Source of the DNA: a virus
Lineage: Duplodnaviria > Caudoviricetes
Virus record (IMG/VR): IMGVR_UViG_3300037751_000502
Coordinates: 1 to 33,445 of that record
Reading direction: 5' to 3' (one strand)
Length of the DNA: 33,445 nucleotides
Position numbers and translations under genes: made by a program. The notes under the pieces are model-generated. The model searched no databases and was not told where the DNA came from. It saw only the letters and a list, made by a program, of their open reading frames with translations. Of the stretch, positions 8,764-31,557 are shown in pieces. Within the stretch, counting starts at the first letter, position 1. The number at the start of each line of letters is the position of its first letter.

Positions 8764-9465
8764 ATTTGGTACCCTCTCCGAGCGCGTCCATGTGTTCTTT
8801 GGTCGCATCCTTGCCCGAGAGGACACCAGCTATGGCGACACTCGTATCTACAACGTAGTCGAGACGCTTCCTGCAATCCCTGCGATGCACCGACCGCAGG
8901 TATAACCGAAACTTCTCAACGGTGTAGTCCGGTATATCACTTTCGTGGTGCCCGTACTCGATCAGAAGCGATACTGCGTCTACTAACTCCTCCGGGTCCG
9001 CCGCACCTTGCTGATCTCGGCGGCGACGGTCGCGGCTTCGCTTTGCGGAATTTCTGCGCGAGCCAGCATCCCCGTCAGCAGCGGTGCTACCCGGGCGGTA
9101 AAAAAAGCGCGATTCACCTCACCGATCTTCATGATCAGTGCAAGCCCCTCCGCCGTGTCGAGTTCCCCCACCCGCTCCACAGACAGGTCCGTCATGGTAG
9201 CGATCAGTTGGTTGATGTCGTTGGGGAAATTTGAAATCAATTGCAACATCTTCACCGGGTCACCGATCGGGATCGACAAGTTACCTTGCGAGTCCGTACC
9301 GAGAATGCCGATGACCTTGGTCAGTAGCCCCAGCACAAACTCGTTGTGCTTCATCCGGACCTTGTTGACCGTGACGACGGTACCATCTTCCAGTCGTACA
9401 TCCGTTGCATCATTGAAAAGCGAGTCGGAGACTTGCGCAGCATTTGTGGCAGTTTGCGTTTCCAT
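8747..9465 (-). CDS. Tail assembly chaperone, long -1 frameshift product (lambda gpGT analogue)
   Basis: The -1 frame is open from the T-TTT-TTT run (9100-9106) to TAG at 8747: ...ADPEELVDAVSLLIEYGHHESDIPDYTVEKFRLYLRS...GTKYGQEK. It fills the gap before the tape measure. Confidence 0.8.
8983..9465 (-). CDS. Tail assembly chaperone, short form (gpG analogue), 160 aa
   Basis: Between the major tail and tape measure genes; METQTATN...EVNRAFF...KVRRTRRS. Confidence 0.85.
   Translation of the reverse strand: METQTATNAAQVSDSLFNDATDVRLEDGTVVTVNKVRMKHNEFVLGLLTKVIGILGTDSQGNLSIPIGDPVKMLQLISNFPNDINQLIATMTDLSVERVGELDTAEGLALIMKIGEVNRAFFTARVAPLLTGMLARAEIPQSEAATVAAEISKVRRTRRS
9100..9106 (-). other. Programmed -1 ribosomal frameshift slippery site T TTT TTT
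   Basis: GCT TTT TTT ACC forms an X XXY YYZ heptamer in the correct phase within the chaperone gene. Confidence 0.8.
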
Positions 9466-9501
9466 AGTGTCACCGATACCTTGAATGGTCCTGCGTATGG
9501 T

Positions 9502-9524
9502 AAAGGGGCCGGCGAACCGGCCCC
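9502..9524 (-). terminator. Hairpin or weak intrinsic terminator after the major tail gene
   Basis: GGGGCCGG-TTCG-CCGGCCCC followed by TTT. Confidence 0.65.
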
Positions 9525-9553
9525 CGTCCAACTAACCCCGCATTACTGGGGGA

Positions 9554-10315
9554 TTAGAAATTGCGCTGACGGAAGAACTTGGAGCCGGAGGTGCGGAGCG
9601 GATCGGCAAGGATCGTGCCCTTCATATCGACCGAAGCCAAGTCTTCATTCAACAGGCCGTAGCCGGTCAGCGGGTCGAACTGCGCCTTGAAGATGTCGAT
9701 GACAACCTTCGAGTCATCCACCGTGTTCAGGCCCTCGAAGCGCAGCCAACGTTCCGGCGCGGCCGACGACATGAACGCGTCCATCTGCGTGTACGACGCA
9801 AAGGTGTAGGCCACGTGCAGCACTTCTGCAGCCGTGATGGCACCGGTCGACAACGGAGTGATGGCGCCATTGACTGCATCGACGGTGTAGTCGGTATCCA
9901 CCACGTAGGTCGTGGTGCCGGGGGCACCCGCAACGTCGTCCTTGACCACAACCGAGGTCACGCCGGGGTGGGCCAGTGCATACTTCTGGTCGAGGCCGGC
10001 GGCCGCGACGGTGACAACTTCGTCGGTCACGGTGGAGCCGGTCACGGATGCCTTGGTGCCCCACAGACCGAGCGCGAGGTTATCGAGGGACAAGTTCTCC
10101 AGCTTGAAATTGAACTTGCCCTTCTTTTCCTTGATGATCGTAAGGTCGGTCAGGCGCGAGCCAGATTCCGATTCCTTGTGCTCGAAAATCGAAGTCTCGA
10201 TGTCGATCGTGAGTTCGGGCACGTTGCCCACCGCGAGGAAGCCCTGCGGGGCGCCCGCCACGGTGCGGGTGGCTACGAGCAGACTGCCCTGTCCGGAATA
10301 GTAATTGTTCGCCAT
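9554..10315 (-). CDS. Major tail (tube) protein
   Basis: 253 aa, MANNYYSGQG...VGNVPELTI...HKESESGSR...LRFEGLNT; AAGGAG RBS; located before the chaperone. Confidence 0.9.
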   Translation of the reverse strand: MANNYYSGQGSLLVATRTVAGAPQGFLAVGNVPELTIDIETSIFEHKESESGSRLTDLTIIKEKKGKFNFKLENLSLDNLALGLWGTKASVTGSTVTDEVVTVAAAGLDQKYALAHPGVTSVVVKDDVAGAPGTTTYVVDTDYTVDAVNGAITPLSTGAITAAEVLHVAYTFASYTQMDAFMSSAAPERWLRFEGLNTVDDSKVVIDIFKAQFDPLTGYGLLNEDLASVDMKGTILADPLRTSGSKFFRQRNF

Positions 10316-10327
10316 TGCTGTACTCCT

Positions 10328-10801
10328 TTACTGCGCGTTGAAAGATCCCGAAAATGGGAGGAACGTGAGCCACACCTGAGAATAGAAGGCGAGCCCGTCG
10401 ACCGATAGTTCCGACTCGGCCTGCTCACCACCGAAGCGCCACACCCGGCTGTTGACACCCTTGTAACCATTCACCTTGTTGCGCAGATCATCAAGAAGGT
10501 CAGTTGCCTGCTTCTTATTGTCGACCTGCCCAGCGTTCTTGTATTGCACCGCGACGATGATGAGGAACTGCGCCTCGACCATTGTCACGCTATGGCTACG
10601 GGACTCTACCGCAGTTCCCGCATTACTGATAGGCCGTGCACCCACATACCCCACCCCCGCTGCCGGGGGCCGCTGCATCTCGGTCACCACCTGTTCCATG
10701 TCCTCCAGACTTACTACGGAGAAACAATTGGTCGCAAAGGAGGGTACTTCCGATACCAGCCCCTGCAGCTCTTTGTCCAGTTGGTCAATCGTTGCTGCCA
10801 T
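10328..10801 (-). CDS. Putative tail terminator / tail completion protein
   Basis: 157 aa from ATG 10801 (GGAGG RBS), directly before the major tail gene; PPAAGVGY motif and mixed alpha/beta pattern. Confidence 0.65.
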   Translation of the reverse strand: MAATIDQLDKELQGLVSEVPSFATNCFSVVSLEDMEQVVTEMQRPPAAGVGYVGARPISNAGTAVESRSHSVTMVEAQFLIIVAVQYKNAGQVDNKKQATDLLDDLRNKVNGYKGVNSRVWRFGGEQAESELSVDGLAFYSQVWLTFLPFSGSFNAQ

Positions 10802-10802
10802 G

Positions 10803-11300
10803 TCATCCTCCAATCGTGCTACGCAGGATGATCGCGCGGAGCGCCGAATCTACTGCCTTGCGGTCTAGCTCCCCTACGCCTAGGAACCGGCGCGGTTGGA
10901 TCATGCGCTTGGCTCTCACGTGGTAGAAGCCGTTATTCATGAGTCGCCCGTACTCCGCTGCTTCCGGGTCCGATACCCCGATACGGAACCCCGCCCCGGT
11001 CGCCGATGCGAACAGGCCCGCATGCGTACCCTGAATAACCTTGATTGCGTCGTACAGCGTACCGGTGCGCTTCAGGGGGTTCTGGTGCTTGCTAGAGCTT
11101 TTGCGCCGCTTGGTGGCGGGCTCCAGAGGAGGCCACTTGACCCCGTCCGCATCGACACCGCGATTGAAGCGAGCCTTGACCCGCTTCAACAGCAGTTTTT
11201 CCAGCATGCCGGAAGTCAAGGCGACATTAGTAGCCGCCTGAATGGACGCGATACGTCGCCGTACCCGTGAGGCTCCACGGACGAAGCGGGTATCAGTCAT
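10803..11300 (-). CDS. Virion morphogenesis / neck protein (Mu gpG, P2 gpS-like)
   Basis: DADGVKWPPLEPAT...PLKRTGTL...EYGRLMNNG...IQPRRFLG motifs. Confidence 0.85.
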   Translation of the reverse strand: MTDTRFVRGASRVRRRIASIQAATNVALTSGMLEKLLLKRVKARFNRGVDADGVKWPPLEPATKRRKSSSKHQNPLKRTGTLYDAIKVIQGTHAGLFASATGAGFRIGVSDPEAAEYGRLMNNGFYHVRAKRMIQPRRFLGVGELDRKAVDSALRAIILRSTIGG

Positions 11301-11943
11301 GGATCACCGTGCGGATAGGGAATGTCATGCCGTAGCGTTCCCGAAGCTCGGGATGGACCAAGGCCGTGATCCGGTCCTTCAGTCCTACCGTGATGTCCTT
11401 CACCGCAGTGATCTTCTTGGACGAGACATGTGCCGGGTTCAAGTTGATGTAGTGCTGTGCCGCAGACTTCCCGGCCTGCACCAACCAATCGGGGGCGTCT
11501 GCGATGACCTTGTCGGTACCCCTGGCCGGGAACCCGGCACTGAACGTAATAGACAACGTGTGTGCGCCGACCGGAACGTCCCTGAGCACGGTCACAGTAC
11601 CTTTGCGGTGATCGACAATGTAGTCGGCCACCGCGACGACCAGCCCGTCATCCTTCGTGCGCAGTGGCAGCGAGCTTTCCGCCTCGCGAACGACAAACGA
11701 CATGGAGGTATCCACAAAACGACTGGACAGGTAGAACATGCGGGGACTGAACCGGGTACGCATCCGGGAATACTCGTAATCGAAGAAGTCCGTGTAGGTA
11801 CCCTCTTCCAGCCTCGTCTCCAGCGCCGCCTCCACAATGCGGGAGGTAATGTCCAGCGCCGCCGCCGCATTCCCCAGCGAGCCCGTGTTGCTGATAATGC
11901 CGAGCAGGTCAAGTACCTGTTGGGGTGTGGCGAGCTTCATCAT
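11293..11943 (-). CDS. Putative head-tail adaptor
   Basis: 216 aa in the neck position; KLATPQQV...SRIVEAALET...ITFSAGF...APDWLVQA pattern typical of adaptors. Confidence 0.7.
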   Translation of the reverse strand: MMKLATPQQVLDLLGIISNTGSLGNAAAALDITSRIVEAALETRLEEGTYTDFFDYEYSRMRTRFSPRMFYLSSRFVDTSMSFVVREAESSLPLRTKDDGLVVAVADYIVDHRKGTVTVLRDVPVGAHTLSITFSAGFPARGTDKVIADAPDWLVQAGKSAAQHYINLNPAHVSSKKITAVKDITVGLKDRITALVHPELRERYGMTFPIRTVIHD

Positions 11944-11964
11944 TACCTCCCGAAAACGTGGCGA

Positions 11965-12279
11965 TTACTTTGAGGCGCGACTGCGACGGGGGGCGGCCGG
12001 TGCCTTGGGCGCTTCGTCGATCGGGGAGGCGTCCGGCACGTCCTCTTCCTCTTCGATCTGCTCGGGGTCGGCTTCCACATCGGCCGGCAGAAGATGGGCG
12101 GGCACTTGCTTGAAATACTTGCGTGGGTTGTCCTTCAGGTCGGTGAAGCCCTGCTTCTTCACGTCTTCCGCGACGAGGTCGTCTTCAATCACGACGGTGT
12201 TGCCGAGGTACACCGGCTCGCCCTTGTTGATACGGGCGTCGATATAGGTTTTGCCATTCACCATTTTAAGCGTTTGCAT
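11965..12279 (-). CDS. Hypothetical protein with acidic, Pro-rich C-terminus (104 aa)
   Basis: ATG 12279 with GGAG RBS right after a palindrome; MQTLKMVNG...APRRSRASK. Confidence 0.7.
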   Translation of the reverse strand: MQTLKMVNGKTYIDARINKGEPVYLGNTVVIEDDLVAEDVKKQGFTDLKDNPRKYFKQVPAHLLPADVEADPEQIEEEEDVPDASPIDEAPKAPAAPRRSRASK

Positions 12280-12294
12280 GTCCACCACTCCTGT

Positions 12295-12308
12295 TGAAAT
12301 CGATTTCA
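12295..12308. promoter_or_regulatory. Perfect palindrome TGAAATCGATTTCA (copy 1)
   Basis: Intergenic, 15 nt upstream of ATG 12279. Confidence 0.85.
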
Positions 12309-12321
12309 AACTTAACGAAAT

Positions 12322-12347
12322 GGGCGGCCCCCGTCAGGAGACCGCCC
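12322..12347 (-). terminator. GC-rich hairpin after the putative decoration gene
   Basis: GGGCGGTCTCC-TGAC-GGGGGCCGCCC followed by ATTTCGTT; weak U tail. Confidence 0.5.
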
Positions 12348-12361
12348 GATACTGCTACTGC

Positions 12362-13003
12362 TTAGGTATTCTTGTTGAACCAGAACAGCACGATCTGGTC
12401 GGTGGCGCCGGTGGACTTGATGCCGCCCGTTGCGGTGCCGCCAAGCAGAGTTGCCGCCGACGCAGTGATGTTGGTGTCACCGACCAGCGTGTAGGCATTC
12501 GGGCCGGTGCCCTCCGCCGTCGCCAGAACCGTCACCACACCCGCCGCCGAGGTCGCCGTCACGGTGTTGCCGTAGTTGGCTTCCCGTGCGTTGATCGCGG
12601 CCGCCAGCGAAGCTGCCGCTGCGGTGTCACTGGTGTCGATCGAGAACTCAAGGAAGTTCGCCGGGACTCCGGCCACACCCGTGTAGGTGATGCCGTTGAC
12701 TTCGACGGTCTCCGCCGCGACCGCACTGACCAGCGTGAGCGTACCGGCGGCCCGGCAATCCACCATGCTGATCGTGGAGGTGATGTCAGTCAGCACCCCG
12801 CCGGTCGCGTTGTTGATGGCCTTGACGACAGTGTCTTCTTGGCGAATTGCCGCCAGATCGAACTTGGTGTTGGCGCTGCCGCCGGTCACCAGCGAAATGG
12901 TCAAGCCCTGAAGTTCCTTGGCGATTGCGAAGATGCCACCCGCGTCCTGCCCTTGCGTGCCGGCCCCGCCTTTGCCCAGATCGGAAATTACTTGAAGCGT
13001 CAT
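12362..13003 (-). CDS. Putative capsid decoration or head-associated structural protein
   Basis: 213 aa, Ala/Thr/Gly-rich beta pattern; first structural gene after the capsid gene once the HNH is skipped. Confidence 0.6.
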   Translation of the reverse strand: MTLQVISDLGKGGAGTQGQDAGGIFAIAKELQGLTISLVTGGSANTKFDLAAIRQEDTVVKAINNATGGVLTDITSTISMVDCRAAGTLTLVSAVAAETVEVNGITYTGVAGVPANFLEFSIDTSDTAAAASLAAAINAREANYGNTVTATSAAGVVTVLATAEGTGPNAYTLVGDTNITASAATLLGGTATGGIKSTGATDQIVLFWFNKNT

Positions 13004-13012
13004 ATCCTGCCC

Positions 13013-13495
13013 CTATCGATTCTGATTCGTTACGTAGTTCAGTATGTTGCTGACCGTGCCAGAACTAACGCCATACTTCTCTGCGAGTTGCCGCATAGTA
13101 TGGGTCGTACCGTCGATCCGCAACTGCCGTAGTTGCTCATCCGTCAGTTTACTCTTTGCTCCGGTGCCCGGATGGGGTCCGCTTCTGCTTCGCCTACCTT
13201 TAGCAAGCATGTCTGCAATATTGTCCGCCTGTGTCCCCAAAAACAGATGATCTGGGCGGACACACTGAGGGTTATCACATGTGTGCAGAACCTTTAACCC
13301 TTCAGGTACGGGACCGTTGTGGATCTCCCACGAAACACGATGGGCATATAGCGTCCCTTCCCCGCGCCGCCCAGCGCCAATAAGACCGTATCGCTTACTG
13401 CCATCGCGCCCTCTAGTACGGTTTGCCGTCCACAGCCAGCAACTGCCTGTACGCGAAACCTTAGGCCAAAACCGTTGCTCTAGCGAGCCGTGCAT
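13013..13495 (-). CDS. Free-standing HNH homing endonuclease with C-terminal HTH
   Basis: CWLWT...YAHRVSWEIHNG...VLHTCDNPQCVRPDHLFLGTQADNIADM...RQLAEKYGVSSGTVSNI. Confidence 0.93.
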   Translation of the reverse strand: MHGSLEQRFWPKVSRTGSCWLWTANRTRGRDGSKRYGLIGAGRRGEGTLYAHRVSWEIHNGPVPEGLKVLHTCDNPQCVRPDHLFLGTQADNIADMLAKGRRSRSGPHPGTGAKSKLTDEQLRQLRIDGTTHTMRQLAEKYGVSSGTVSNILNYVTNQNR

Positions 13496-13549
13496 AGCAT
13501 GCCCCTCCGTGAAAAAGCACTACCCTATCACTTTGGTGCATGCTACACA
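13491..13549 (-). promoter_or_regulatory. mRNA hairpin covering the start codon and SD of the HNH gene
   Basis: UGUGUAGCAUGC (13549-13538) pairs with GCAUGCUAUGCA (13502-13491), which includes AUG 13495; inner GUGA/UCAC stem. Confidence 0.6.
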
Positions 13550-13558
13550 ACATCTGAA

Positions 13559-14512
13559 CTAGATATTAGTGAACTTGACCGCTGCGTCGCCGTCGTCGAT
13601 CTGGAACCCCAGACGGGCGGTCACGACAACGATGATTTCACGGGCACGGATTTCACGGACGCTCTCAACCTGAATGTCGCGGCGGATGCCGAAGATCAGG
13701 TTTTGCGGGAAGGTCATGAAGCCCACGTTACCGGTACCGGCAGCGGCCAGCATCGGCGCTGCTTCGACGGCCACGCCGCCCGCGAAGATCGGTGCAGCTT
13801 GTTGCAGCATCGTGTCGCCATAGCCGGTGGCACGTTGTGCAACCTTCTGGCGATAGCGGATGGTGTTGGCCACGGTAACAAAGTGACGCATCAGCGCGAG
13901 GTCGCGCAGATACTTCTGCGGCATCGCCAGCATGCCATTGACGAACATGTCGGGCGAGATACCGGCCGAAGCGTTGTTCACCACGTGAGCCGTCATGCGC
14001 TTGAGCCAGCCATCCTGCAGCAGCAGATCGGCGTCGCCGGATGCGGTATCGGACCACAGTGCCAGTTCTTCGAAGTCGACCGCAGCACGAGTCGCGATCT
14101 GACGCATCAGGTGGGCTTCGAAACCGCCGCGCTCGATATTGTCTTCCAGAACTTCGTAGGGGACATGGACTTCCGCCATGTATTCCTTGGTGGTGACGCT
14201 GATCTGCGCAGTCGTCGGCTTGGAACGCTTGGCGGCGGCGAGGTGGCGATCATTGGTGCCGTCGTCGTCTGCGAACGGCGAGGAACCCTGCGGCGCAGCG
14301 TGGAAGATCCGCGAGCCGAAGCCCATGCGGTCAATCTTGGTCTCCGGCTTGTTCATGCGGAGGTGGCGCGACTGCTTCAGAACGGTCGGCGTCTCCATGA
14401 TCATGTCGATGAAGGCGTCAGCCTGTTCCGGCTGGAGATACCCGCCATCGGTGGTCAGGTCGCTGATGGCAACGTCGGCGCGCTGGGCGAGTGCAACATT
14501 ACTGGTGGTCAT
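13559..14512 (-). CDS. Major capsid protein (HK97 fold, PBSX XkdG/T5-like)
   Basis: 317 aa; DGGYLQPEQADAFI...YEVLEDNIER...DGWLKR...PQNLIFGIRRDIQVE. Confidence 0.93.
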   Translation of the reverse strand: MTTSNVALAQRADVAISDLTTDGGYLQPEQADAFIDMIMETPTVLKQSRHLRMNKPETKIDRMGFGSRIFHAAPQGSSPFADDDGTNDRHLAAAKRSKPTTAQISVTTKEYMAEVHVPYEVLEDNIERGGFEAHLMRQIATRAAVDFEELALWSDTASGDADLLLQDGWLKRMTAHVVNNASAGISPDMFVNGMLAMPQKYLRDLALMRHFVTVANTIRYRQKVAQRATGYGDTMLQQAAPIFAGGVAVEAAPMLAAAGTGNVGFMTFPQNLIFGIRRDIQVESVREIRAREIIVVVTARLGFQIDDGDAAVKFTNI

Positions 14513-14528
14513 GTTTGGTTTCCTGTAG

Positions 14529-14542: not shown

Positions 14543-14566
14543 AATCTGGTGAGAGTCGAATCAGTG

Positions 14567-14989
14567 TTACTTGACGCTGGGGAACATGCCCTTGAACACA
14601 TCCTTGCGGGTGACCGTTTGCGGAGCGTCTCCAGCGTCGGAGCGCAGCACGGTGGCCCCTTCGATCTTGCCGAGACGGCTATCCACACCCTCGGCCATAC
14701 CGGCAACGGTCTTGGCCAGTGCCTCCAGCGAGCGGGTCACGTTCTCCAGATGGGTCGCTTCGGCCGAGACAGCGGCGGCAGCGGGGGCTGCCTCGACCGG
14801 CGCGGCTTCGGCGGCTGCCGGGGCGGCGCTGTCGGTGCGCTGGACAGTAGCCATGGCGGCCTTGACGGCTTCGGCCACGACAGCAACCAGCTCGGCACGG
14901 GTCACATGCTCAACGGTCGGGGTGGTGGGTGCTGCGACGGCTGCAGCGGCGTCGCTGCGTTGAACTTCATCTTGCTTCTTGTCAGTCAC
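14567..14989 (-). CDS. Nested in-frame scaffold protein from an internal start (140 aa)
   Basis: AAGGAG-N6-GTG at 14989, in frame (VTDKKQDEVQRSD...); analogous to lambda C/Nu3. Confidence 0.55.
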   Translation of the reverse strand: MTDKKQDEVQRSDAAAAVAAPTTPTVEHVTRAELVAVVAEAVKAAMATVQRTDSAAPAAAEAAPVEAAPAAAAVSAEATHLENVTRSLEALAKTVAGMAEGVDSRLGKIEGATVLRSDAGDAPQTVTRKDVFKGMFPSVK

Positions 14990-15964
14990 TTGACTCTCCT
15001 TGGATTCATGAATGGACCGATTGGCCAGAACTACCTTGGCCGGCAGGGCGTCCAGAAGGCTACCCATATATGTTGCATACTGCGTTGCGGCACGACTTAC
15101 CAGTTCCTTGCGTACCGACACCGGCAACGGGCTGTAGAACAGAATCTGGTCTGCTACCCGTCTCAGTGTGTAGCCTGCTTCCTCCGCCGCGTTGCAGAAC
15201 TCCTTGTCTGCCATGCACGATGCGAAGTCCAGTTGCCCCCACCCCCACGAACCGTAGGAAGTCTCCGATACCACTTCGATAAACGCGGAAGGTACATCCG
15301 CCAAGTCTGCGCGGGCGATGACAAACGTCACACCGTCCTCGACTTGAATTTCCCTTGTTTCCTCACCATCCGGACCGCCAGTTCGGCAGACCAGTGTTGC
15401 AGTGGGCCCATTCTTCACACCATCCGGCAGAAAGTCAATATCATGACGCTCGATCCACGCCATAACGTCACTCTCTTCCGAATACTGTTCCTTGTCGAAG
15501 CGCACCGCCACGACGGACAGGTTACCCTTCTCGCCAGCCACCAGCACGGGGTCGGCACGCTCGATGGAGGCGAACACACCGTTGCCGATACCGATATTGG
15601 TGACGTTGGCGGGCACCGCTTCGAGGTCGCTACGCAGTGCCACGACACTGTCGCCGGCACGGGTCAGGGTATACCCCGTCAGGCCGAACTCGTCCATGGT
15701 CTTCTTGGCATCATCTTCTGTGGTGCCGGCCGGGAACATCACGGATACCATGGGGCCCATACTGCGCTGCGCTCGCACCCGCCGAACACGGATGTCTGCG
15801 GTCTTCTCCGTCATATTCTGCTCCTTATTGTCTTCCCGAATGATTTTGAAACCTACCTGATTCGCTGGCTTGTCGGTCAGTGTCAAGAAAGCAGGTTCGA
15901 CGAGTGTAGTCACGTTCACCTTCTTCTGTACAGCCGCCGCGCCGGTGTCGCTACGCTTGGTCAT
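14567..15964 (-). CDS. Capsid scaffolding protein carrying an N-terminal protease-strand motif
   Basis: 465 aa between protease and capsid genes; N-terminal VEPAFLTLTDKPANQVGF; Ala/Glu-rich coiled C-terminus ending DVFKGMF; ATGA overlap with the protease gene. Confidence 0.75.
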   Translation of the reverse strand: MTKRSDTGAAAVQKKVNVTTLVEPAFLTLTDKPANQVGFKIIREDNKEQNMTEKTADIRVRRVRAQRSMGPMVSVMFPAGTTEDDAKKTMDEFGLTGYTLTRAGDSVVALRSDLEAVPANVTNIGIGNGVFASIERADPVLVAGEKGNLSVVAVRFDKEQYSEESDVMAWIERHDIDFLPDGVKNGPTATLVCRTGGPDGEETREIQVEDGVTFVIARADLADVPSAFIEVVSETSYGSWGWGQLDFASCMADKEFCNAAEEAGYTLRRVADQILFYSPLPVSVRKELVSRAATQYATYMGSLLDALPAKVVLANRSIHESKESQVTDKKQDEVQRSDAAAAVAAPTTPTVEHVTRAELVAVVAEAVKAAMATVQRTDSAAPAAAEAAPVEAAPAAAAVSAEATHLENVTRSLEALAKTVAGMAEGVDSRLGKIEGATVLRSDAGDAPQTVTRKDVFKGMFPSVK

Positions 15965-16560
15965 ATTCCGCCCGCCCCTTTTACAATATTGAATCTGTGG
16001 AAGTGCCCGGCCGATTCGTCGGTCACCGTGGTCCTGCTGATGATGTGGCTGTGGCCGTTTGCTGTGGAGGTCCCGCCACTGACTGTCCGCCCCACCTCGT
16101 CGACGATCACCAGAAACTCATGGGTATGTCCGTCATCAAGATCGGCTTCCGTAACGCCCGCCCGGACTCCACTCTCCTCATAGGTGAAGATGGCGGGGAG
16201 GAACGACACCAGTGCCTCGTAAGAGTATCCATTGATTTCCCCGGACAGGATACCCTCCCACACAACATCGTCGTGGATACGCATGGCGGCGACCCATGAG
16301 CCCTCTATGAACGTCGGATCACCGGCCCGGGCGATGAAGGACTCCACGACATGCACGCCACCCGTGCGATCCACCTTGTCATGCTCCAGATCGATACCGT
16401 AGCCACGCTCTGCGAAGGCATAGGCAGCCTCCCGGATCTTGCCGGCGGTCCAGTAGTCCCCGAACGTATTGGGTACATCCGGCACTAGGACTTCGGCAAA
16501 CACGACACGCTCGAACTCTCGATCACTGCGGAGGTGTAGCCGCACTTCTGGACCCGACAT
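15961..16560 (-). CDS. Prohead protease (XkdF-like) with His-repeat tail
   Basis: ERVVFAEVLVPD...GD...IREAAYAF...IDLEHD...VVESFIA...GSWV...WEGILSGEINGYSYEA; AAGGAG RBS. Confidence 0.88.
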   Translation of the reverse strand: MSGPEVRLHLRSDREFERVVFAEVLVPDVPNTFGDYWTAGKIREAAYAFAERGYGIDLEHDKVDRTGGVHVVESFIARAGDPTFIEGSWVAAMRIHDDVVWEGILSGEINGYSYEALVSFLPAIFTYEESGVRAGVTEADLDDGHTHEFLVIVDEVGRTVSGGTSTANGHSHIISRTTVTDESAGHFHRFNIVKGAGGI

Positions 16561-17160: not shown

Positions 17161-18744
17161 TTACTCTTGACCGTGCTCAGGAGCCGTCGTACTGATGTCC
17201 CCTTCCGCCTCAACATCCTTGGTCCCTTGATCCTTGACGGACTGTTCTACTTGGCTGTTATCACTGTTTGCGTTCTTGATGGAAAACGCGATAGGACGAT
17301 CCATCCACGGCTCCCAGCCTTCTGTACCACGCTCGGGGTACTGGGGCATGGCGGCTTGCAGCACGCTGTTGGCGGCACCAATCGCGGTACGAGGAGTCAC
17401 GCCGCCCATGACGTTCAGGGCAGTCAGCGCCTTGATCAGCATTTCCGGGTTGGTGATCGCAGGCACCCTGCTCTTGAGCATGACTGTCTTGATCCCCAGT
17501 CCTTTGGGGTGATGCACTAGACCTTTGTTGTACCTTTCGTCGTAGATTTTCCGCTGCGGTGCAAAGACTTGCGTCTCCGCGACGAACGCACTGACGTTGG
17601 CTGTGGCGTAGGTGGCGTCCTGTGACGCCCCGACCGATACGCCCGGCAGACGGAAGGCAGAACGCGCCTTGTTGCGGTTGGATTCGTCGTACGCGGTGAA
17701 CAGGCCATCGCTCTGCCGGGTGTCCGCCAGCTTATGGACATCCAGACGGATCGGGGTGCCCTTGTCGTCGATCCCACTGCTTTCGGGGACGGCCTCCACC
17801 AGCATGATCTGGTGCTGACGATCCTTGCCCACCCCTTGTTGCTGCAGCATCTTCTGCAGCTCGCGATACGAGGTCGCCGTCAGCCGTCCGCCCGACACGG
17901 TCAGCATCATCGGGGGCACCGTGTTGTCCTCGAAGTACCGTAGATTGACTTCCTCGGCCTCCCGGCTGCCCAAGATCGAGGGCAGTTGGGCAATCCACCT
18001 CGGCACACCATACGGGTCTTCGGAATCCTGCCGGAAATGCATCAGCTCGGTCGCTTCCTTGTCCTTGGGCACATTGCCTTCGGTATGGAACTCCCCGGTC
18101 TCGCAGTTCAGCCGGCGCGGGTCGCCGAACTCCTTGAAATACACGGTCTTGCCAGACACGATCTGGACGAAGCGGCGAAAACGCCGATACTCCGTCACGT
18201 AGGAGGTTCGTGGCCCCCTGCGGATATCGTAGACGACCTTTATGGGGTCTTTGTGGCGTGGCATCAAGCGGGTAATGCTGGATTTGGCGTGCCGCAGAAC
18301 GGAGACGGAGCCGGTGGTGTCCCGGATGACTTCCAGAAACCCGTAGCCAACGCCTTCGTTTTCACGAACGACCTTGCTATTGACAGTGGTCAGGGATTCT
18401 TCGGAGTTTGCCGAGTCGATAAATGACTGCAGAATCTCCCGTTCATTCTCATCAACCGGGATGTCCTTATGCACCGGCACCACATCCCACCCGCACATGG
18501 CGATATTGGTCACCATTGCATCGATACACGGACCCAGCATGTTGGACCGTTCGATGATGTTCAGCAACTTGGTGGGGGAGTACGGCGGGGCTAGGAAGAA
18601 AGTCGAAATGGCGGACGCCTGAAACTCGTCCTCCACAGTCATCTGTCGGCTGGTATCCGCCCGCTCGACGGGCACACCAAAGGATGCGACCCTTGCGGTT
18701 ACTTGCGGGTCCGTAGTGCGTACGCGTCGGATACGTGTCGTCAT
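17161..18744 (-). CDS. Portal protein (PBSX/XkdE-like)
   Basis: 527 aa; APPYSPTKL...GYGFLEVIRD...YFKEFGDPR...ELMHFR...YGVPRW...NLRYFEDNTVP...SAFRLP. Confidence 0.93.
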   Translation of the reverse strand: MTTRIRRVRTTDPQVTARVASFGVPVERADTSRQMTVEDEFQASAISTFFLAPPYSPTKLLNIIERSNMLGPCIDAMVTNIAMCGWDVVPVHKDIPVDENEREILQSFIDSANSEESLTTVNSKVVRENEGVGYGFLEVIRDTTGSVSVLRHAKSSITRLMPRHKDPIKVVYDIRRGPRTSYVTEYRRFRRFVQIVSGKTVYFKEFGDPRRLNCETGEFHTEGNVPKDKEATELMHFRQDSEDPYGVPRWIAQLPSILGSREAEEVNLRYFEDNTVPPMMLTVSGGRLTATSYRELQKMLQQQGVGKDRQHQIMLVEAVPESSGIDDKGTPIRLDVHKLADTRQSDGLFTAYDESNRNKARSAFRLPGVSVGASQDATYATANVSAFVAETQVFAPQRKIYDERYNKGLVHHPKGLGIKTVMLKSRVPAITNPEMLIKALTALNVMGGVTPRTAIGAANSVLQAAMPQYPERGTEGWEPWMDRPIAFSIKNANSDNSQVEQSVKDQGTKDVEAEGDISTTAPEHGQE

Positions 18745-21176: not shown

Positions 21177-21782
21177 CTACTCCTTTCGTCTGACACGTAT
21201 GATTCGCTTGCTGAAGTCTTGCGGGGGCGCCGTCTTTTTAGGGGGCGTCTGCTCTTCGTAAGGGTGTAGTAGGTTGTAGTCCCCGTCCGGCCTAGGATGC
21301 AGATGGATGTCGTTGTGCATCTGCTCGTACCCAAACATCTCGTCTGACTGCCCAACAATTACGCAGGGTCCGTTGCGAGGGACCCGGTATAGGTTCCTCA
21401 ACTGGTTGGCACTGATATAGTGTAGCTGCCCATCGAGGTTACTGATCACGCTACCCGGGTGCAGAATGTACCGTACCGGGGGGTCATAGTCCTCATCCTC
21501 CTCCGGATCTCCCTCGTCCTCCTCCTGATCGGCCTCGTCGTGCCTCCCATCGTAAACGTAGTTGCTATTGTATCCGCCATCATGGTGCAGCTCCGTTGTT
21601 CGTACCTGTAGTACGCCACCTACTGGAGGATAGAGGTGTACGTCGTCCGCCTGCGTAGGGGTTTCCTCCGATGCGGGGTCAAACTCGACGACGCCGTGCC
21701 GCATAGCCAGCGCGGCGGCGCTGTAATACATACTGCTACCGTCCTCTTCCGTACCGAAGCCGGCATGTGCAATATACCTCAT
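21177..21782 (-). CDS. Hypothetical protein with two copies of the same domain and an acidic linker
   Basis: MRYIAHAG...DGSSMYYSAAALA... and RYILHPG...DGQLHYISANQLRNLYRV...HLHPRPDGDYNL. Confidence 0.7.
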   Translation of the reverse strand: MRYIAHAGFGTEEDGSSMYYSAAALAMRHGVVEFDPASEETPTQADDVHLYPPVGGVLQVRTTELHHDGGYNSNYVYDGRHDEADQEEDEGDPEEDEDYDPPVRYILHPGSVISNLDGQLHYISANQLRNLYRVPRNGPCVIVGQSDEMFGYEQMHNDIHLHPRPDGDYNLLHPYEEQTPPKKTAPPQDFSKRIIRVRRKE

Positions 21783-22144
21783 GTTCTGACTCTCCTGACC
21801 CGCACCTTGGCGGGTGTCGCCACCTTGACCTGAAGGTCGTCAATATGTCTAGTCAACTGGAGCGCCTTGCGTGTCACCCATTCGTCTTGCGGTAGGTGGC
21901 ACCCGGTCTCTCCCGCCCAATCTGCAAACTCTGCGTCGTAAAACCCAACCGTAACCCCATGCGCCTGCTGCAGCGTCGTCAGCTCATTGGCCCACACCTG
22001 CCATTGATCGTCGGAGACCACGGGGCTGTCCCGTACGTAGTACAGGTAAGAGTGAATCAGCATCTGTGACCGGCGCTGCTTGATCTTCTCTGCAACCGCT
22101 GCAGGCATGCGCGCGGCGCTGCGAACACGACGAATGCGCTCCAT
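21779..22144 (-). CDS. Stand-alone NAD-dependent DNA ligase domain Ia-like protein
   Basis: IHSYLYYVRDSPVVSDDQWQ resembles LigA HxYxYYVxDxPxISDxEYD; start at 22144 just after the upstream TAG. Confidence 0.7.
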   Translation of the reverse strand: MERIRRVRSAARMPAAVAEKIKQRRSQMLIHSYLYYVRDSPVVSDDQWQVWANELTTLQQAHGVTVGFYDAEFADWAGETGCHLPQDEWVTRKALQLTRHIDDLQVKVATPAKVRVRRVRT

Positions 22145-22563: not shown

Positions 22564-22594
22564 GGCTTCCTCTTTTTGAAATCGATTTCAGTAC
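22561..22594. repeat. 34-bp direct repeat copy A (palindrome copy 5 at 22577-22590, RBS and ATG)
   Basis: CATGGCTTCCTCTTTTTGAAATCGATTTCAGTAC is identical to 31721-31754. Confidence 0.92.
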
Positions 22595-23419: not shown

Positions 23420-24223
23420 TCAGTCCCATCCGTGCTGCACGACCCGCCATGCATCTTCGTCATGGTGTGCGAACTGCTCGGCGTCCTCGCGCCGGGCAAA
23501 ACGCAACGCCTTGTTATGGTCTTCGGTCCAATCCCAGATCCCGCCGTTGTCGTTGTTGATGAAGCGGTACGCCAAACCTTCCCCGGCATTCTTGCCGTTC
23601 TCGACCAGCCATCCGTATTCAGTTACCTTCGCAGATTTCACCGCCCCGAAAGAGGCATGCCGTTCATCCTCCTCTGCGGCAGCGATCGGACGTAGGTCAA
23701 AGACCAGCTCCTCAACTGTACCTAGACTCGCGGTAAGGTGGTCCCTCACCCTATCAAGGTACTCATACGTCACGGGGCACGGCATACCGGTATTGAACCA
23801 TGCATTGATCGCATCCTTGTACTGCTGACACACTTTCGGGTCGTCGAGCGCCGCCGACAACCACGGTGACAGTCCGTAGGCGGCCTCCCACATTTCGTCC
23901 TGCTCGGCTGGCGCGCCGCCGGCGGCGCGGATATCCCTCACACCCTCCCCCTCGACGCATCGACGGATCTCACAAGGCAGATCGGTGTCGGGTACTTTGG
24001 ATTCGATGTCTTGCTGGTGCGCATCGACCCTGCCGACCAGCAGTTGAATTGCTTCAAGGTGCGCCGGGTTCGCTCCAAGCTGCTCGCACTCGGCAAGGTA
24101 GGTGCGCAGCATCGCGGGCACGGCCTTGTCCTTTGCGAGAAACAGGATCGAGTCCTCTTCCGTATGTGTGTTCTTGCTACACGGATTTACGGCATTGATC
24201 TTGTACTTCCAGTCGATAGTCAT
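23420..24223 (-). CDS. Multi-segment hypothetical protein
   Basis: 267 aa with distinct N-terminal (FLAKDKAVPAML) and C-terminal (WTEDHNKALRFARREDAE) segments; ATGA coupling. Confidence 0.75.
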   Translation of the reverse strand: MTIDWKYKINAVNPCSKNTHTEEDSILFLAKDKAVPAMLRTYLAECEQLGANPAHLEAIQLLVGRVDAHQQDIESKVPDTDLPCEIRRCVEGEGVRDIRAAGGAPAEQDEMWEAAYGLSPWLSAALDDPKVCQQYKDAINAWFNTGMPCPVTYEYLDRVRDHLTASLGTVEELVFDLRPIAAAEEDERHASFGAVKSAKVTEYGWLVENGKNAGEGLAYRFINNDNGGIWDWTEDHNKALRFARREDAEQFAHHDEDAWRVVQHGWD

Positions 24224-24528
24224 GCTCCACTCCTTGTACGGCGAACACGCCCAGCGGGCGCGGGTTGGGTTTCTTCTCTCGGCGGTACGGTCTTGATCTT
24301 GGCATCATTGCGCAGTTTGGGGAGAAGCAAAGTATTGTGCGAGGTAGGTACCATGGCCACCCGTGGCGTGAGGCTGCGGTCGTCCCCCCAGCGAAGCTCG
24401 ATCCCGTCATCTTTAATACTAATGGCGAGGATGATGCCCCCGTGCTCCACACATACCTGCCCGCCGGGGATCTCTACCTTGTGATCCACAAACTTTGGCC
24501 CCACTACCATACGGTATATCTTCGACAC
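24220..24528 (-). CDS. Hypothetical protein
   Basis: GTG start with AAGGA RBS behind a palindrome; ends RVRRTRSGA. Confidence 0.7.
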   Translation of the reverse strand: MSKIYRMVVGPKFVDHKVEIPGGQVCVEHGGIILAISIKDDGIELRWGDDRSLTPRVAMVPTSHNTLLLPKLRNDAKIKTVPPREETQPAPAGRVRRTRSGA

Positions 24529-27162: not shown

Positions 27163-27163
27163 C

Positions 27164-27430: not shown

Positions 27431-27442
27431 CTTCGCTCCCCA

Positions 27443-27955
27443 TCAACGTGCCGGGCAATGTTCCAGTTCATCAGCGGGGAATGTATGCACTGCCCCCCGC
27501 GCGGTGCTGGACTCGACGACGTACCCTTCCGGCGTGAATTCCGTAGAGTAGGTGCCGACGATTTTACCGCTCCATTGTGAGCCTTTGATTTTGCGCACGG
27601 TATCCCCCATCTTGAACTTCCCGGGAATGGCGGGGCGCCTATTAAGAACAAGGTTGTAGGTGCGGAGACTTTCGATCTCGGCTACCATTCCGTTACATTG
27701 CTCTGCCGTGGTCAGGTCCTCCAGCTCATGTACCGGGTAGCCCTGCCGAAAATACGGCGGATAGTCATGGTCGAATACGGATACTACCGCCGCACGAAGA
27801 TGAAGGATCTCATCAGCCATCGCGCCGATGAACTTGTCCCCCGTAACGTCCCTCCACGTCTCCCCATACCGAAACACTTCCTGACGGCCACCCACCTGCC
27901 GATAGGTGTATTTACCACCTTCTACCATAAGTTCTACCGCTTCACCGTTATCCAT
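27443..27955 (-). CDS. Fusion protein with a C-terminal DfrB / R67 type II DHFR-like SH3 domain
   Basis: FKMGDTVRKIKGSQWSGKIVGTYSTEFTPEGYVVES...GAVHTFP aligns to R67 [36 protein letters not shown]...GSVQIYP (recalled sequence); AAGGAGG RBS. Confidence 0.82.
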   Translation of the reverse strand: MDNGEAVELMVEGGKYTYRQVGGRQEVFRYGETWRDVTGDKFIGAMADEILHLRAAVVSVFDHDYPPYFRQGYPVHELEDLTTAEQCNGMVAEIESLRTYNLVLNRRPAIPGKFKMGDTVRKIKGSQWSGKIVGTYSTEFTPEGYVVESSTARGAVHTFPADELEHCPAR

Positions 27956-27968
27956 CGTCGTCCCCTCC

Positions 27969-28157
27969 TTACGCGAAGTGCTTCTGCTAGATACCCTCTA
28001 CCGCCTCGATCTGCCTTTCACTCAAGCCCGACACATCCCTGCCGTCACTGGTTTTCTCCGAAAGCGTAGCGACAAACCCCGCCTCCCAGTCCGTAAGGTC
28101 CGAATCGGCCAGCCCGCAAACCTACTTAACCTGTGTGTTGAGCGACACAATTCTCAT
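27969..28157 (-). pseudogene. 62-codon gene with two in-frame TAG codons (pseudogene or readthrough)
   Basis: AAGGAG RBS; MRIVSLNTQVK*VCGLADSDLTDWEAGFVATLSEKTSDGRDVSGLSERQIEAVEGI*QKHFA ending in a TAA that overlaps the next RBS. Confidence 0.75.
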
Positions 28158-28167
28158 GATGCTCCTT

Positions 28168-28181
28168 TGAAATCGATTTCA
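28168..28181. promoter_or_regulatory. Perfect palindrome TGAAATCGATTTCA (copy 7)
   Basis: Directly abuts the AAGGAG RBS, 10 nt from ATG 28157. Confidence 0.85.
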
Positions 28182-28198
28182 TTCTTACCACTGAACGC

Positions 28199-28531
28199 CT
28201 ACTTCTTGCCCTTGGTACCCATGCGCATCGGGTACATTACGCATGTTTTCTCGGAAGTACATCGCGCGACTTCCCTGACATAGCCACCCATACAACTCAC
28301 ACAGAAGGCCCGAATGACGCGTAGCGGGGTGTTCGCTTTTGCGTTGTATTTGGCAATGATACGGGCGCACTGATCAACTTCACTCTCACCTTCCTGTGGC
28401 TCGTCCGCCGACTCGTCCTCCTCGGGTAGATCGCAGTCCGACAAGCTCTCCTCTAAGGGAATCGCGGCCCGCCGCTGACGCGGGGCGGGGGGCTCTACCG
28501 TTGCCAGCCTTGTCCTTCTTACTCTTTCCAT
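28199..28531 (-). CDS. Zinc-binding hypothetical protein
   Basis: VIRAFCVSCMGG...EVARC...CVMYPMRMG pattern; AAGGA RBS; N-terminal MERVRRTR. Confidence 0.75.
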   Translation of the reverse strand: MERVRRTRLATVEPPAPRQRRAAIPLEESLSDCDLPEEDESADEPQEGESEVDQCARIIAKYNAKANTPLRVIRAFCVSCMGGYVREVARCTSEKTCVMYPMRMGTKGKK

Positions 28532-28880
28532 GATCTGTCCTTTTTATCTGCTTCAGCCAAGCCGGCTTAGTCTCTGTTTCCCATAGCAACACACCCTTCT
28601 CTTCCCGGATGTAGAAAGCAAAAACTCTCCACAGCGCGTCGCCGGCCTGCATCACCTTCAGGTGTGCTGGGTGTATCGGGCTGATTCCTTGGGGGAGGGC
28701 AACCCCGACCGCGTCCGCGAACGCTTCAGTGAATCGAATCTTGCATGCGCCCTTGCCCTCCCCGTCGACGACATACACAACACTGCTGAGCGACGAGTGT
28801 CCTTGTGGTTTTCGGGCCGCGCATATCCCCCACTTAGCCATCTCGCGCGTGTATCTGCAGTTATCCAATGGAATCACCAC
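28386..28880 (-). CDS. Hypothetical protein
   Basis: 164 aa; the C-terminal ~145 nt overlap the next gene. Confidence 0.55.
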   Translation of the reverse strand: MVIPLDNCRYTREMAKWGICAARKPQGHSSLSSVVYVVDGEGKGACKIRFTEAFADAVGVALPQGISPIHPAHLKVMQAGDALWRVFAFYIREEKGVLLWETETKPAWLKQIKRTDHGKSKKDKAGNGRAPRPASAAGRDSLRGELVGLRSTRGGRVGGRATGR

Positions 28881-29652
28881 CCAGTACGTGTACGGGTATG
28901 TGGATATGCCCTATTCTCTGCCTGTGCAGAGTTTCCACTACCGTCTGCCGGATACGCCCCGCTGGAATACGCTGCTCCTCCAGCACATCAATCGGTATCT
29001 CCACCGAGGCGCTGCGCGTGGCATGGTCCCCGGTATCCGTGTCATACCGTAGATAGGTAATGATCACCCCGATTTGTCTAGGGTTGTGCCTTATCTCCAC
29101 ACGCAGTACCGTGGCGTGGATGTTCCGATCCGACCAACTATTTAGCTGCCGGGTAAACTGCTCCTCACGCAGCATGTCCATAGCGGTGTTTTGCGCCCCC
29201 GATGCTGAGACTGGCCCGTCAGGCCGAGGCATAAAAGGAAAAAAGCTGCTGTTGTGATCCGTGTCTATTTGCAGTCGTTGGAATGCCTCTACCGTCGCCC
29301 TTTCCGCCTCCGTAGATGCTGGCCTAGGCTCCTCCCCTAGGGGGCGCGGGGTAGCGCGAAAAGGCGTATCACCATTCAGGCGCCTAACGGGGGGGAGGGC
29401 ACGCAAGTGGTCAACTATCGTTTGGGCGCCCCGGCCGCCATCGGCGCGGATTGCCTCCCCAAAGTTAATAGCACTCCTTGAGGTGACGTTCACCCACCCC
29501 GTCCTGTCGGGCCCTGCCGCTAAGTCCACGGCTATCGTCGTGGGCCACTGGCCCCTGCTCAGGTCTAGGGTACCCACTTCCTCGGAAGGTGTCTTTTGCA
29601 CCTCAGCGGGAGCCACCTTGGGGCGCCCTCTAACGAATATCTGCCGTTTCAT
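28861..29652 (-). CDS. Hypothetical protein
   Basis: MKRQIFVRGRPK..., 263 aa; AGGTGG RBS. Confidence 0.65.
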   Translation of the reverse strand: MKRQIFVRGRPKVAPAEVQKTPSEEVGTLDLSRGQWPTTIAVDLAAGPDRTGWVNVTSRSAINFGEAIRADGGRGAQTIVDHLRALPPVRRLNGDTPFRATPRPLGEEPRPASTEAERATVEAFQRLQIDTDHNSSFFPFMPRPDGPVSASGAQNTAMDMLREEQFTRQLNSWSDRNIHATVLRVEIRHNPRQIGVIITYLRYDTDTGDHATRSASVEIPIDVLEEQRIPAGRIRQTVVETLHRQRIGHIHIPVHVLGGDSIG

Positions 29653-29659
29653 CCCCACC

Positions 29660-30652
29660 TTACCTCCCGGCAATCGTGATGGTCCTCGTGCGGTTATCTA
29701 CGCCGACCGAATGTTTGCAATCGATTTCAATAATCTGCTCCGCAACCTCATTGTGGTCCGCACTCTCGGGCGGGACGCACTGGAAGATGAACCCATCTTC
29801 CCAGTTGTACGGACTTTTCTCGAAAGACAGCGGAGACTCGTAAGCGCGGACGATGGACATCCGCTTGAGTCCGGTCACTTCGAGAATCTTGCTGTACGCC
29901 TTGCCCGCCCGGTAGAACGACCGCCTCGTTTCCACGTCCGGGGACGGGATGTTCCTCCTCCCCTCATTCACACATGCGGTGCTGTATAGAAAATCCAGCA
30001 ACATCGCGTAGCGCCCCAGCCTGACGTGCTGTGCCTGCCGCAAACCCCCTCCGTGGTAGGTAGGGTAGCCCGCGCCGTGCCAGTCATGCAGCAACCCGTG
30101 CGTAGCCTTCTGCATCGCCCGGTTCGGCCCATAGGTTACGTACTTGGGTTTGGCCTTGGCCTTGCCTTCGTACCGGTTTTCGTAAAAAGCGGCCCGGCAG
30201 ACGCCATCTTCCTCGGAAAGTCGGGTCGCAATACAGATAAAAGGGCTTTCAGAGTACGTAATCATGCGGCTGTACACGTAATTTGAGTCGATTTCGTGGG
30301 CCAAATAGATCGGCGCACCGTCCTTTTCCCGCAAAACATGGTCGTGAACGCAGATATCTACCGCCGCACCGGCGTTCCACAGGTGGTACGAGGGCTTGTT
30401 TGGGTCCTGATATTTGACGATTTTGGTGCTCAGCTCGGGTGAAATGTACCCGTAACTGATCGAAAATGGCCCTTTTTCGACCAAAAGTGGCTCCAAAATG
30501 GTGTCGCAGAGGTACATAATCTCTGCAATTTTGGTACTTTTGGGGTCCAAAAAGGGGTTTTTGTACCCATTTACCATCATCGAGTGGCAGATCATGAAGT
30601 CAGAGAGCAAAAAGTGCTCTGAAATACGTACAGTGGTAGGGTCAATCGCCAT
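29660..30652 (-). CDS. Peptidase M15-like protein with a duplicated, degenerate second domain
   Basis: RISEHFLLSDF...LCDTILEPL...ISYGYISPEL...SYHLWNAGAAVDI; second repeat RLGRYAMLLDF...SIVRAYESP; ATG 30652 with GGAGG RBS. Confidence 0.65.
   Translation of the reverse strand: MAIDPTTVRISEHFLLSDFMICHSMMVNGYKNPFLDPKSTKIAEIMYLCDTILEPLLVEKGPFSISYGYISPELSTKIVKYQDPNKPSYHLWNAGAAVDICVHDHVLREKDGAPIYLAHEIDSNYVYSRMITYSESPFICIATRLSEEDGVCRAAFYENRYEGKAKAKPKYVTYGPNRAMQKATHGLLHDWHGAGYPTYHGGGLRQAQHVRLGRYAMLLDFLYSTACVNEGRRNIPSPDVETRRSFYRAGKAYSKILEVTGLKRMSIVRAYESPLSFEKSPYNWEDGFIFQCVPPESADHNEVAEQIIEIDCKHSVGVDNRTRTITIAGR
29716..29729. promoter_or_regulatory. One-mismatch palindrome (TGCAATCGATTTCA) inside a CDS
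   Basis: TTGCAATCGATTTCAA, 15 of 16 matching the extended motif. Confidence 0.5.
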
Positions 30653-30890
30653 GGATATGCCCCTCCCGGATGACTGGGTAAAGCGCCAGAAACTTCTCTT
30701 CTGCCTGCTGTGTATCCGTCTCGCGCGCATGCTCCATCATTCCTAGTCCCGGCGTTAGGAATTCTGCGGGCATATCGATCATTGTCTCGTCAAACAGATG
30801 GATCACATACATCATGTCCGCATACCGATAGAAGATAGCCTGCACGATCTTCGGGACACTCTCCTCATCGCAACGTGTGAGTATCTTCAC
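30642..30890 (-). CDS. Hypothetical protein
   Basis: 82 aa; GTGA coupling to the upstream stop. Confidence 0.65.
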   Translation of the reverse strand: MKILTRCDEESVPKIVQAIFYRYADMMYVIHLFDETMIDMPAEFLTPGLGMMEHARETDTQQAEEKFLALYPVIREGHIHGD

Positions 30891-31183
30891 AGCATCCCCT
30901 CCTTGCGCAGGCGCTCAACGATCTGGTCCGCCACGGCGCGAGCAAGGTCCTCGTGGTACCGGTCTTTCTGCTCTCTCGGGGACAAGGTATCGGCCGGCCG
31001 CCTCTCAGGGGCCTGCTGCCGCCTGCGGATGCTGGCACATAGAGGGCAGGGCCACCCGTCTTGAAGCCAAAAGCCATGTTCGGCTACCTCGCCACAGATC
31101 GGCACGATACCCCCGGCTCGATGACGCGGCTCCGCCACTTCTGTGGTCTTGCTCCCACGCCGAAACCTGTCGATGAACCACAT
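30887..31183 (-). CDS. Hypothetical protein with a C/H/CxxC motif
   Basis: PICGEVAEHG...CPLCA; TAATG coupling. Confidence 0.65.
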   Translation of the reverse strand: MWFIDRFRRGSKTTEVAEPRHRAGGIVPICGEVAEHGFWLQDGWPCPLCASIRRRQQAPERRPADTLSPREQKDRYHEDLARAVADQIVERLRKEGML

Positions 31184-31557
31184 TACTTCTTCCTCCGTAC
31201 CTTTGTTATTGTGGGTATACCTTCAGGGGGTGGCGCCTCCCCATGCAACTTCTGTAGCCACTCCAGCGCCTTGGCTTTGGTGTCTCGCATTACTACAGCC
31301 GGGTTGTCCCCAAAAGCAACCGGCCCGCAGACTCCGGGTAGGTGGGTCTGCCCTGACCATTTCTTGCCAATGTGTGGCTGTGTCGACAACCCCACGATCC
31401 CGAACAATACGCTACCGATGTACAGGCAATGGGATGTCTTGTACTTCACCCATTTGATCGGGTAGGGCTCGTTCGCTTGCGGTATGCGGGTGCGCGTGAC
31501 TCGTCGTTCAGACGACGGCTCGGGCGCTGGCGAGCGCGTGCGGCGTATCCTGTCCAT
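31183..31557 (-). CDS. Hypothetical protein with basic tags at both termini
   Basis: MDRIRRTRS...TKVRRKK; G-rich RBS. Confidence 0.7.
   Translation of the reverse strand: MDRIRRTRSPAPEPSSERRVTRTRIPQANEPYPIKWVKYKTSHCLYIGSVLFGIVGLSTQPHIGKKWSGQTHLPGVCGPVAFGDNPAVVMRDTKAKALEWLQKLHGEAPPPEGIPTITKVRRKK

Follow-up and report, generated by a model that had tools for sequence, protein, structure and literature searches.

A basic peptide tag recurs at the ends of unrelated proteins in a Samunavirus-like phage fragment and its relatives

Tagged proteins in the window

The DNA studied here, hereafter the window, is a contig of 33,445 bases and 58% GC that constitutes the whole of the IMG/VR virus record IMGVR_UViG_3300037751_000502, and the element in question is a short basic peptide, [RK][IV]RR[TV]R, which recurs as a tag at the ends of otherwise unrelated proteins. 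Genes are carried by the minus strand and specify head and tail morphogenesis, together with a block of small genes. The portal protein shares 51.7% of its residues with the one in Pseudomonas phage SM1 (Samunavirus, 93 kb) and 30-37% with those of other siphophages of 79-110 kb. Thus, the window corresponds to about one third of such a genome, the replication block not being within it, and by sequence it is a fragment of a Samunavirus-like siphophage. No RNA run was listed among the sequencing runs searched.

A six-frame scan for the strict motif returned nine matches, eight of them on the minus (coding) strand and one in a plus-strand frame opposite a gene. The coding matches represent eight tags on seven proteins; seven of these tags lie at most 18 residues from a protein end, and the remaining one comes after an internal ATG in the putative scaffold. 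Once weaker instances are counted, eight unrelated proteins are tagged. All ten instances listed in the initial annotation were recovered where it had placed them, on eight proteins rather than ten because two of the proteins (21779-22144 and 31183-31557) are tagged at both ends. The tags are as follows, the second being a weak one absent from that first list:

8992..9009, minus strand: KVRRTR, C-terminus of the tail assembly chaperone (8983-9465; phrog_1442), no overlap with a Shine-Dalgarno (SD) sequence
11968..11991, minus strand: PRRSRASK, weak C-terminal basic tail of a 104-residue head-region protein (11965-12279)
15773..15790, minus strand: RVRRVR, putative scaffold (14567-15964), eight residues past an internal ATG at 15814
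18718..18735, minus strand: RIRRVR, residues 4-9 of the portal protein (17161-18744; PF04860 and phrog_12)
21180..21206, minus strand: RIIRVRRKE, weak C-terminal tag of a 201-residue phrog_7644 protein
21785..21802, minus strand: RVRRVR, C-terminus of a ligase-Ia-domain protein (21779-22144), overlapping the SD of the next gene
22121..22138, minus strand: RIRRVR, N-terminus of the same stand-alone ligase-Ia-domain protein (PF22745)
24232..24249, minus strand: RVRRTR, C-terminus of a 102-residue protein of no known family (24220-24528)
28508..28525, minus strand: RVRRTR, N-terminus of a 110-residue Cys-rich protein (28199-28531)
31186..31206, minus strand: TKVRRKK, weak C-terminal tag of a 124-residue protein (31183-31557), overlapping the next SD
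31534..31551, minus strand: RIRRTR, N-terminus of the same 124-residue protein, of no known family

The putative scaffold takes its assignment from the place of its gene between those of the protease and the capsid. In relatives, too, this position carries a basic tag, and use of the internal start at 15814 is plausible: a strong ribosome-binding site, AAGGAG, stands 6 nt upstream, as it also does in a near relative (G001), SM1 having no Met there. The gene of the ligase-Ia-domain protein starts 2 nt past the upstream stop, with no SD, and the Cys-rich family also occurs in SM1, G020, JP1 and RcTiptonus. Homologues of the phrog_7644 protein with a single domain, encoded by the next gene and by one gene of G009, are untagged. 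In G002, G003 and G006 a 105-residue gene product has a tail resembling that of the 104-residue head-region protein.

Terminal enrichment, residue order and codons

The strict motif is found on 7 of 92 termini, compared with a mean of 0.014 (maximum 2) in 20,000 within-terminus shuffles that kept the composition of each terminus; the looser [RK][IVL]RR is found on 10 of 92, compared with 0.58 (maximum 6). With shuffles so far below the observed counts, it is the order of the residues that is kept, beyond their arginine content. The strict expression was defined on the very instances counted, and independent support therefore comes from relatives. These were complete or near-complete phage records with genes called by script; against the SM1 annotation, 116 of 116 called stops matched and 99 of 128 annotated genes were exact. 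The core pattern [RK][IVL]RR, written after SM1 had been examined and before G009 and G020 were fetched, has 8 terminal and 2 internal occurrences in the window, and 16 terminal and 14 internal ones in SM1, G020 and G009 together (p=1.8e-7, for 303 proteins with 13% of positions terminal). The 1006 proteins of eight unrelated phages (55-66% GC) had 6 terminal and 26 internal occurrences, with no terminal enrichment, and five phages of the sister clade had 2 and 20. Terminal enrichment, a check proposed beforehand in the initial annotation, is thus present in the window and three relatives and absent from the eight unrelated GC-rich phages.

The same annotation had argued from differing codons that conservation operates at the protein level, and the counts bear it out. 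Among the eight tags, identical codons occur in 14 of 130 same-residue pairs, whereas 29.7 would be expected from codon usage; codon identity below chance indicates a protein-level motif and no DNA repeat. The positive control for a translated repeat was Corndog (NC_004685), a phage with an AAA homologue and an apparent tag, V-R-K-P-N, close to the termini of about six proteins, the AAA ATPase included, in which 75 of 75 codons are identical. This tag is the 17-bp palindrome described for cluster O mycobacteriophages, read in the same frame (PMC4351075); being a translated DNA repeat, it was dropped as an independent case.

These data bear on the possibility that the motif arises incidentally from GC-rich codons, from overlap with SD sequences or from translation of a DNA repeat. 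In its favour, a repeat in the DNA can pass for a peptide tag, as in Corndog, and four of the five C-terminal tags (those of the genes at 21779, 24220, 21177 and 31183) do overlap the SD of the next gene. This overlap had been raised as a caveat before; it holds for those four cases but neither for the tail chaperone at 8983 nor for any N-terminal case. Together with the codon identity and the lack of terminal enrichment in the GC-rich controls, this largely refutes the artefact, to which we give almost no credence.

On the body side of 34 tags, flanks contain 9.5% Pro (vs 4.4%) and 12.9% hydrophobic residues (vs 24.9%). This composition and the occurrence of tags in relatives agree with the earlier description of a lineage-specific short linear motif on Pro/Ala-rich linkers.

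Dialects and tagged proteins in related phages

An unbiased scan for terminal k-mers gave RRTR as the top k-mer of the complete relative G020, at 8 termini and no internal position. The top patterns elsewhere were R.RR in the window, RIRR in SM1, P.R.R in HJ05, R.VRL in L338C, K.RP in RcTiptonus and AI.KR in JP1. Each of these dialects is enriched mainly in its own genome, and the off-diagonal comparisons are mostly empty (the diagonal is circular, the off-diagonal is not). Codon identity within dialects is at or below chance, being slightly above it in HJ05 (64 vs 57.8). The term phage-specific used in the initial annotation fits the exact hexapeptide, which is hardly seen outside this phage and the phages closest to it, but not the practice of tagging, since the clade tags the same classes of proteins with other spellings. 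Proteins with basic ends numbered 139 of 702 in the clade of SM1 and the window, compared with 69 of 788 for the sister clade and 131 of 1266 for the controls.

SM1 carries tags on its polymerase, helicase, resolvase, a ParB-like protein and the pre-portal/head block, and also on a protein annotated as endolysin. Tagged proteins amount to 10 of 44 in the DNA-metabolism and pre-portal/head blocks vs 5 of 84 elsewhere (p=0.007, for a pattern recognized post hoc). In G020 the tagged proteins include the exonuclease, resolvase, ParB-like protein and polymerase, and in more distant relatives genome-specific dialects appear on polymerase, helicase, RecA, resolvase, ParB, terminase and portal. Between orthologues the tag comes and goes and can change ends: the ligase-Ia protein has two tags in the window and a single C-terminal one in SM1, the phrog_894 protein has none in the window and a C-terminal one in SM1, and the Cys-rich protein is tagged N-terminally in the window and at both ends in G020. 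The tag is real, selected, protein-level, portable, located on flexible ends and clade-wide.

A tag that has four arginines among six residues, sits on a disordered linker and is borne by many proteins that act on DNA could also bind DNA, or a condensate rich in DNA or polyanions, with no protein reader, and so tether phage proteins to replicating phage DNA. The dialects resemble one another in charge and in beta-branched residues more than in exact sequence, and their Arg or Lys flavour roughly tracks the Arg content of the genome. However, the exact order is constant within a genome and differs between genomes, neither of which non-specific binding needs, and the tail chaperone and the SM1 protein annotated as endolysin are tagged as well. 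We hold direct DNA binding to be a serious if rather unlikely alternative.

Prohead protease sites

The gene for the presumptive maturation enzyme lies immediately upstream of the scaffold gene and is untagged:

15961..16560, minus strand: XkdF-type prohead protease (PF14550)

The pattern x-x-R-[SAT]-[DE] occurs in eight copies in the scaffold of the window and once past the portal tag in four genomes (4 of 4 checked); the sister clade has Lys in place of Arg at these sites. In the window such sites are seen in the scaffold (14567-15964), at the N-terminus of the capsid protein (13559-14512) and at that of the portal (17161-18744), and the pattern is the probable specificity of the XkdF-type protease. 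Predicted sites of the form x-x-R-[SA]-[DE] sit just past the portal and scaffold tags, and the protease would thus cut both tags off at maturation. If the portal and scaffold tags are stripped at this stage, their action would precede completion of the virion.

The tagging of portal and scaffold and the R-[SA]-[DE] sites that follow the portal tag also suit a signal that loads proteins into the prohead, in the manner of the T4 capsid targeting sequence, and is then clipped by the prohead protease. Such a signal had been among the functions put forward initially. Half of the tags are C-terminal, though, and polymerase, helicase, resolvase, ParB-like proteins and the tail chaperone carry them; with so many tagged replication and recombination enzymes in the complete relatives, we regard prohead loading as very unlikely.

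A candidate reader module

In SM1, G020, G009, HJ05, JP1, RcTiptonus and L338C, consecutive genes encode an AAA+ ATPase, a beta protein of 200-240 residues (gp27 in SM1), a DUF1257 protein and a DUF2997 protein. The portal tree places the window beside SM1, G020 and G002 (support 100/100), in the same clade, whose six complete genomes all contain this module; judged from this tree, the phage of the window would have it too.

The tails of the ATPase and of the gp27-like protein bear basic tags themselves. Pfam AAA matches the C-terminal half of the ATPase, and its model adds before it a similar alpha/beta domain (read from secondary structure) that begins at about residue 12, leaving no separate N-domain; the tail is disordered (predicted local distance difference test score, pLDDT, below 50 at residues 531-546). 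The gp27-like model has a confident beta-rich body and a low-confidence tagged tail. Its profile matched eight proteins, every one in the module clade (members of this clade supplied most of the profile, which limits its reach), which makes it the closest companion of the tags. One fold search with the model gave no match at E<=0.001 and another a best Z of 4.4, which is no proof of a new fold; the protein has no Pfam match, a homologue search returned only itself and the atlas gave no usable match. A profile search with DUF1257 found no solved relative, and no established function for the AAA+/DUF1257/DUF2997 module was found in the literature searched.

A basic-basic-hydrophobic-x-hydrophobic pattern derived from the module tails was rejected, as it matches L338C and JP1 but fails for the window and for SM1. 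The SM1 gp50 family, present in both clades and having an SH3-like start (by eye), an acidic linker and a Lys/Ala/Pro tail, was considered as a hub as well. We also noted that the SM1 protein encoded at 44214-45551, with orthologues in all ten complete genomes, is conserved, belongs to no Pfam family and has an acidic linker, to which several of the genomes add a Lys/Ala/Pro-rich tail like that of histone H1; it is a candidate organiser of phage DNA.

A free disordered terminus suits engagement by an AAA+ pore, and the clade encodes a two-domain AAA+ ATPase. The tags could accordingly be degrons or unfolding handles for this tandem ATPase, or for a host protease or chaperone, serving to recycle or dismantle phage complexes; hosts do differ between dialects. 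On the other side, the tags function at either end and are present on the essential, long-lived portal and polymerase and on the ATPase itself, and we consider this explanation improbable.

Proposed function of the tag

The reading we lean towards, with slightly less than even confidence, is that of a docking label read by a phage-encoded partner. The portable peptide, on the flexible end of a protein, would dock on this one partner, and docking would gather the proteins of DNA replication, recombination, packaging and head assembly at one place in the infected cell. One spelling common to many unrelated proteins of a genome suggests that a sequence-reading partner probably exists, and the change of spelling between genomes suggests that this partner is phage-encoded and changes with the phage. 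The best candidate at present is one of the products of the AAA+ ATPase/gp27-like/DUF1257/DUF2997 module, whose gp27-like member tracks the tags most closely. It is tempting to speculate further that siphophages of 80-110 kb in this clade address proteins by a system of their own: any protein could receive a short basic tag at one end or the other, each lineage would spell this tag in its own way, and a phage-encoded AAA+/adaptor module, to which a beta protein without a fold match belongs, would recognize it and organise a replication-and-packaging factory. Tag and module would then be equivalent, in a bacterial virus, to a localisation signal with its receptor; this larger proposal we consider doubtful.

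Several observations weigh against the docking label and its candidate reader. The module lies outside the 33-kb window, and among the metagenome contigs examined none joined this phage to it. The strict hexapeptide was not replicated in SM1, G020 and G009 (1 terminal and 1 internal occurrence), and several of the expressions used were written with SM1 already examined. Tag and module co-occur in one clade only, which amounts to a single evolutionary event and no correlation, and nine contigs that have an AAA homologue but are unrelated or distant, eight of them with a DUF1257-like gene, showed 4 terminal and 19 internal occurrences, with no enrichment. The sister clade (DLP5, Summit, TM16, RcZahn, VPP01, KarBoss) has N-terminal M-[AGP]-hydrophobic-x-hydrophobic-Lys leaders on replication proteins, at 46 of 788 vs 14 of 1266 in controls (for a pattern chosen post hoc); these apparent Lys-type tags occur without DUF1257 and DUF2997, so that tags may not need the module. 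A loose tail pattern that fits 36 of 50 AAA tails is also common among the C-termini of these loci in general (446 of 1222), and the module proteins may be mere tagged clients.

A docking label of six residues would bear on how mid-sized phages collect their replication, packaging and assembly proteins in a cell that has no compartments, and, with a cultured model in Pseudomonas phage SM1 and its relatives and few candidate readers, it would be directly testable. It would mark which hypothetical genes belong to the replication, packaging and assembly machinery, and would offer a way into the uncharacterised AAA+/DUF1257/DUF2997 module, which is also found in cyanobacteria.

Other features of the window and of other phages

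A gene at 27443-27955 of the window encodes a protein with a C-terminal R67 dihydrofolate reductase-family domain (PF06442), and an HNH endonuclease gene (13013-13495) is inserted between the capsid gene and the following head gene. Two genes with no relation to each other are immediately preceded by an identical 20-base sequence (at 22564-22583 and 31724-31743, minus strand), the initial 10 bases of which recur upstream of 24528; it is a possible promoter or regulatory repeat.

Shared terminal sequences of other kinds were noted in three further cases. Six unrelated proteins of Salmonella phage chi (NC_025442; genes at 942, 4848, 10743, 42230, 50916 and 53132) end in an acidic tag of the D-D-E-V type whose codon identity equals chance (27 vs 26.9), which indicates a protein-level tag. 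Four proteins of Burkholderia phage BcepNazgul (NC_005091; genes at 8803, 9682, 19355 and 46204) end in DPAAGL, also with codon identity at chance (13 vs 13.1). In G012, eight clustered proteins (genes 41493-42610 and 59093-61625) share an N-terminal R-K-x-x-x-L-E-K-L leader and may be paralogues or bear a different tag.

Comparison with known systems

Twin-arginine (Tat) signal peptides carry RR near the N-terminus, followed by a hydrophobic stretch. They were rejected as an explanation of the tags, whose flanks are poor in hydrophobic residues and half of which are C-terminal.

The p97/Cdc48 cofactor motifs (VCP-binding motif, VBM, and VCP-interacting motif, VIM) are Arg-rich short motifs through which many clients of one AAA+ hub bind the N-domain of p97. 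The phage ATPase shares with p97/Cdc48 its tandem AAA+ domains, as suggested by Pfam AAA and the secondary structure of the model, but the model leaves no room for a cofactor-binding N-domain; with two alpha/beta domains and no N-domain, the likeness to Cdc48 holds only loosely. The AAA+ protein of the module presumably also resembles Ycf46. DUF1257 is ycf35 and is clustered with DUF2997 (PMC4284462). The module thus parallels a Ycf46-like AAA+/DUF1257 (Ycf35)/DUF2997 system in having a tandem AAA+ protein beside DUF1257 and DUF2997, and departs from it in that the clade adds the gp27-like beta protein.

The closest parallels come from phage T4. Its sliding-clamp-binding motif is a terminal peptide on a variable linker, interchangeable among gp43, gp55 and gp33, that docks on one phage hub; it is hydrophobic and acidic, C-terminal and has a known receptor (PMC2988020). 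As with that motif, a short terminal peptide is common to unrelated phage proteins. Unlike it, the present tags are strongly basic, lie at either end, mark about one protein in ten and include the portal, scaffold and chaperone. No clamp is found among the annotated genes of SM1, for which no profile search for a divergent clamp was made. The T4 capsid targeting sequence is N-terminal and cleaved. It is a conserved peptide on otherwise diverse phage proteins, a feature it shares with our tags, and sends them into the scaffolding core (PMC3012670), whereas the present tags stand at both ends and largely on replication enzymes (polymerase, resolvase, ParB-like). No description of these tags was found in the literature searched, among the matches listed, with subscription journals mostly uncovered. 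The tag works most like the T4 clamp-binding motif and capsid targeting sequence, yet fails the defining features of both, and would be a variant of the docking peptides shared by unrelated phage proteins.

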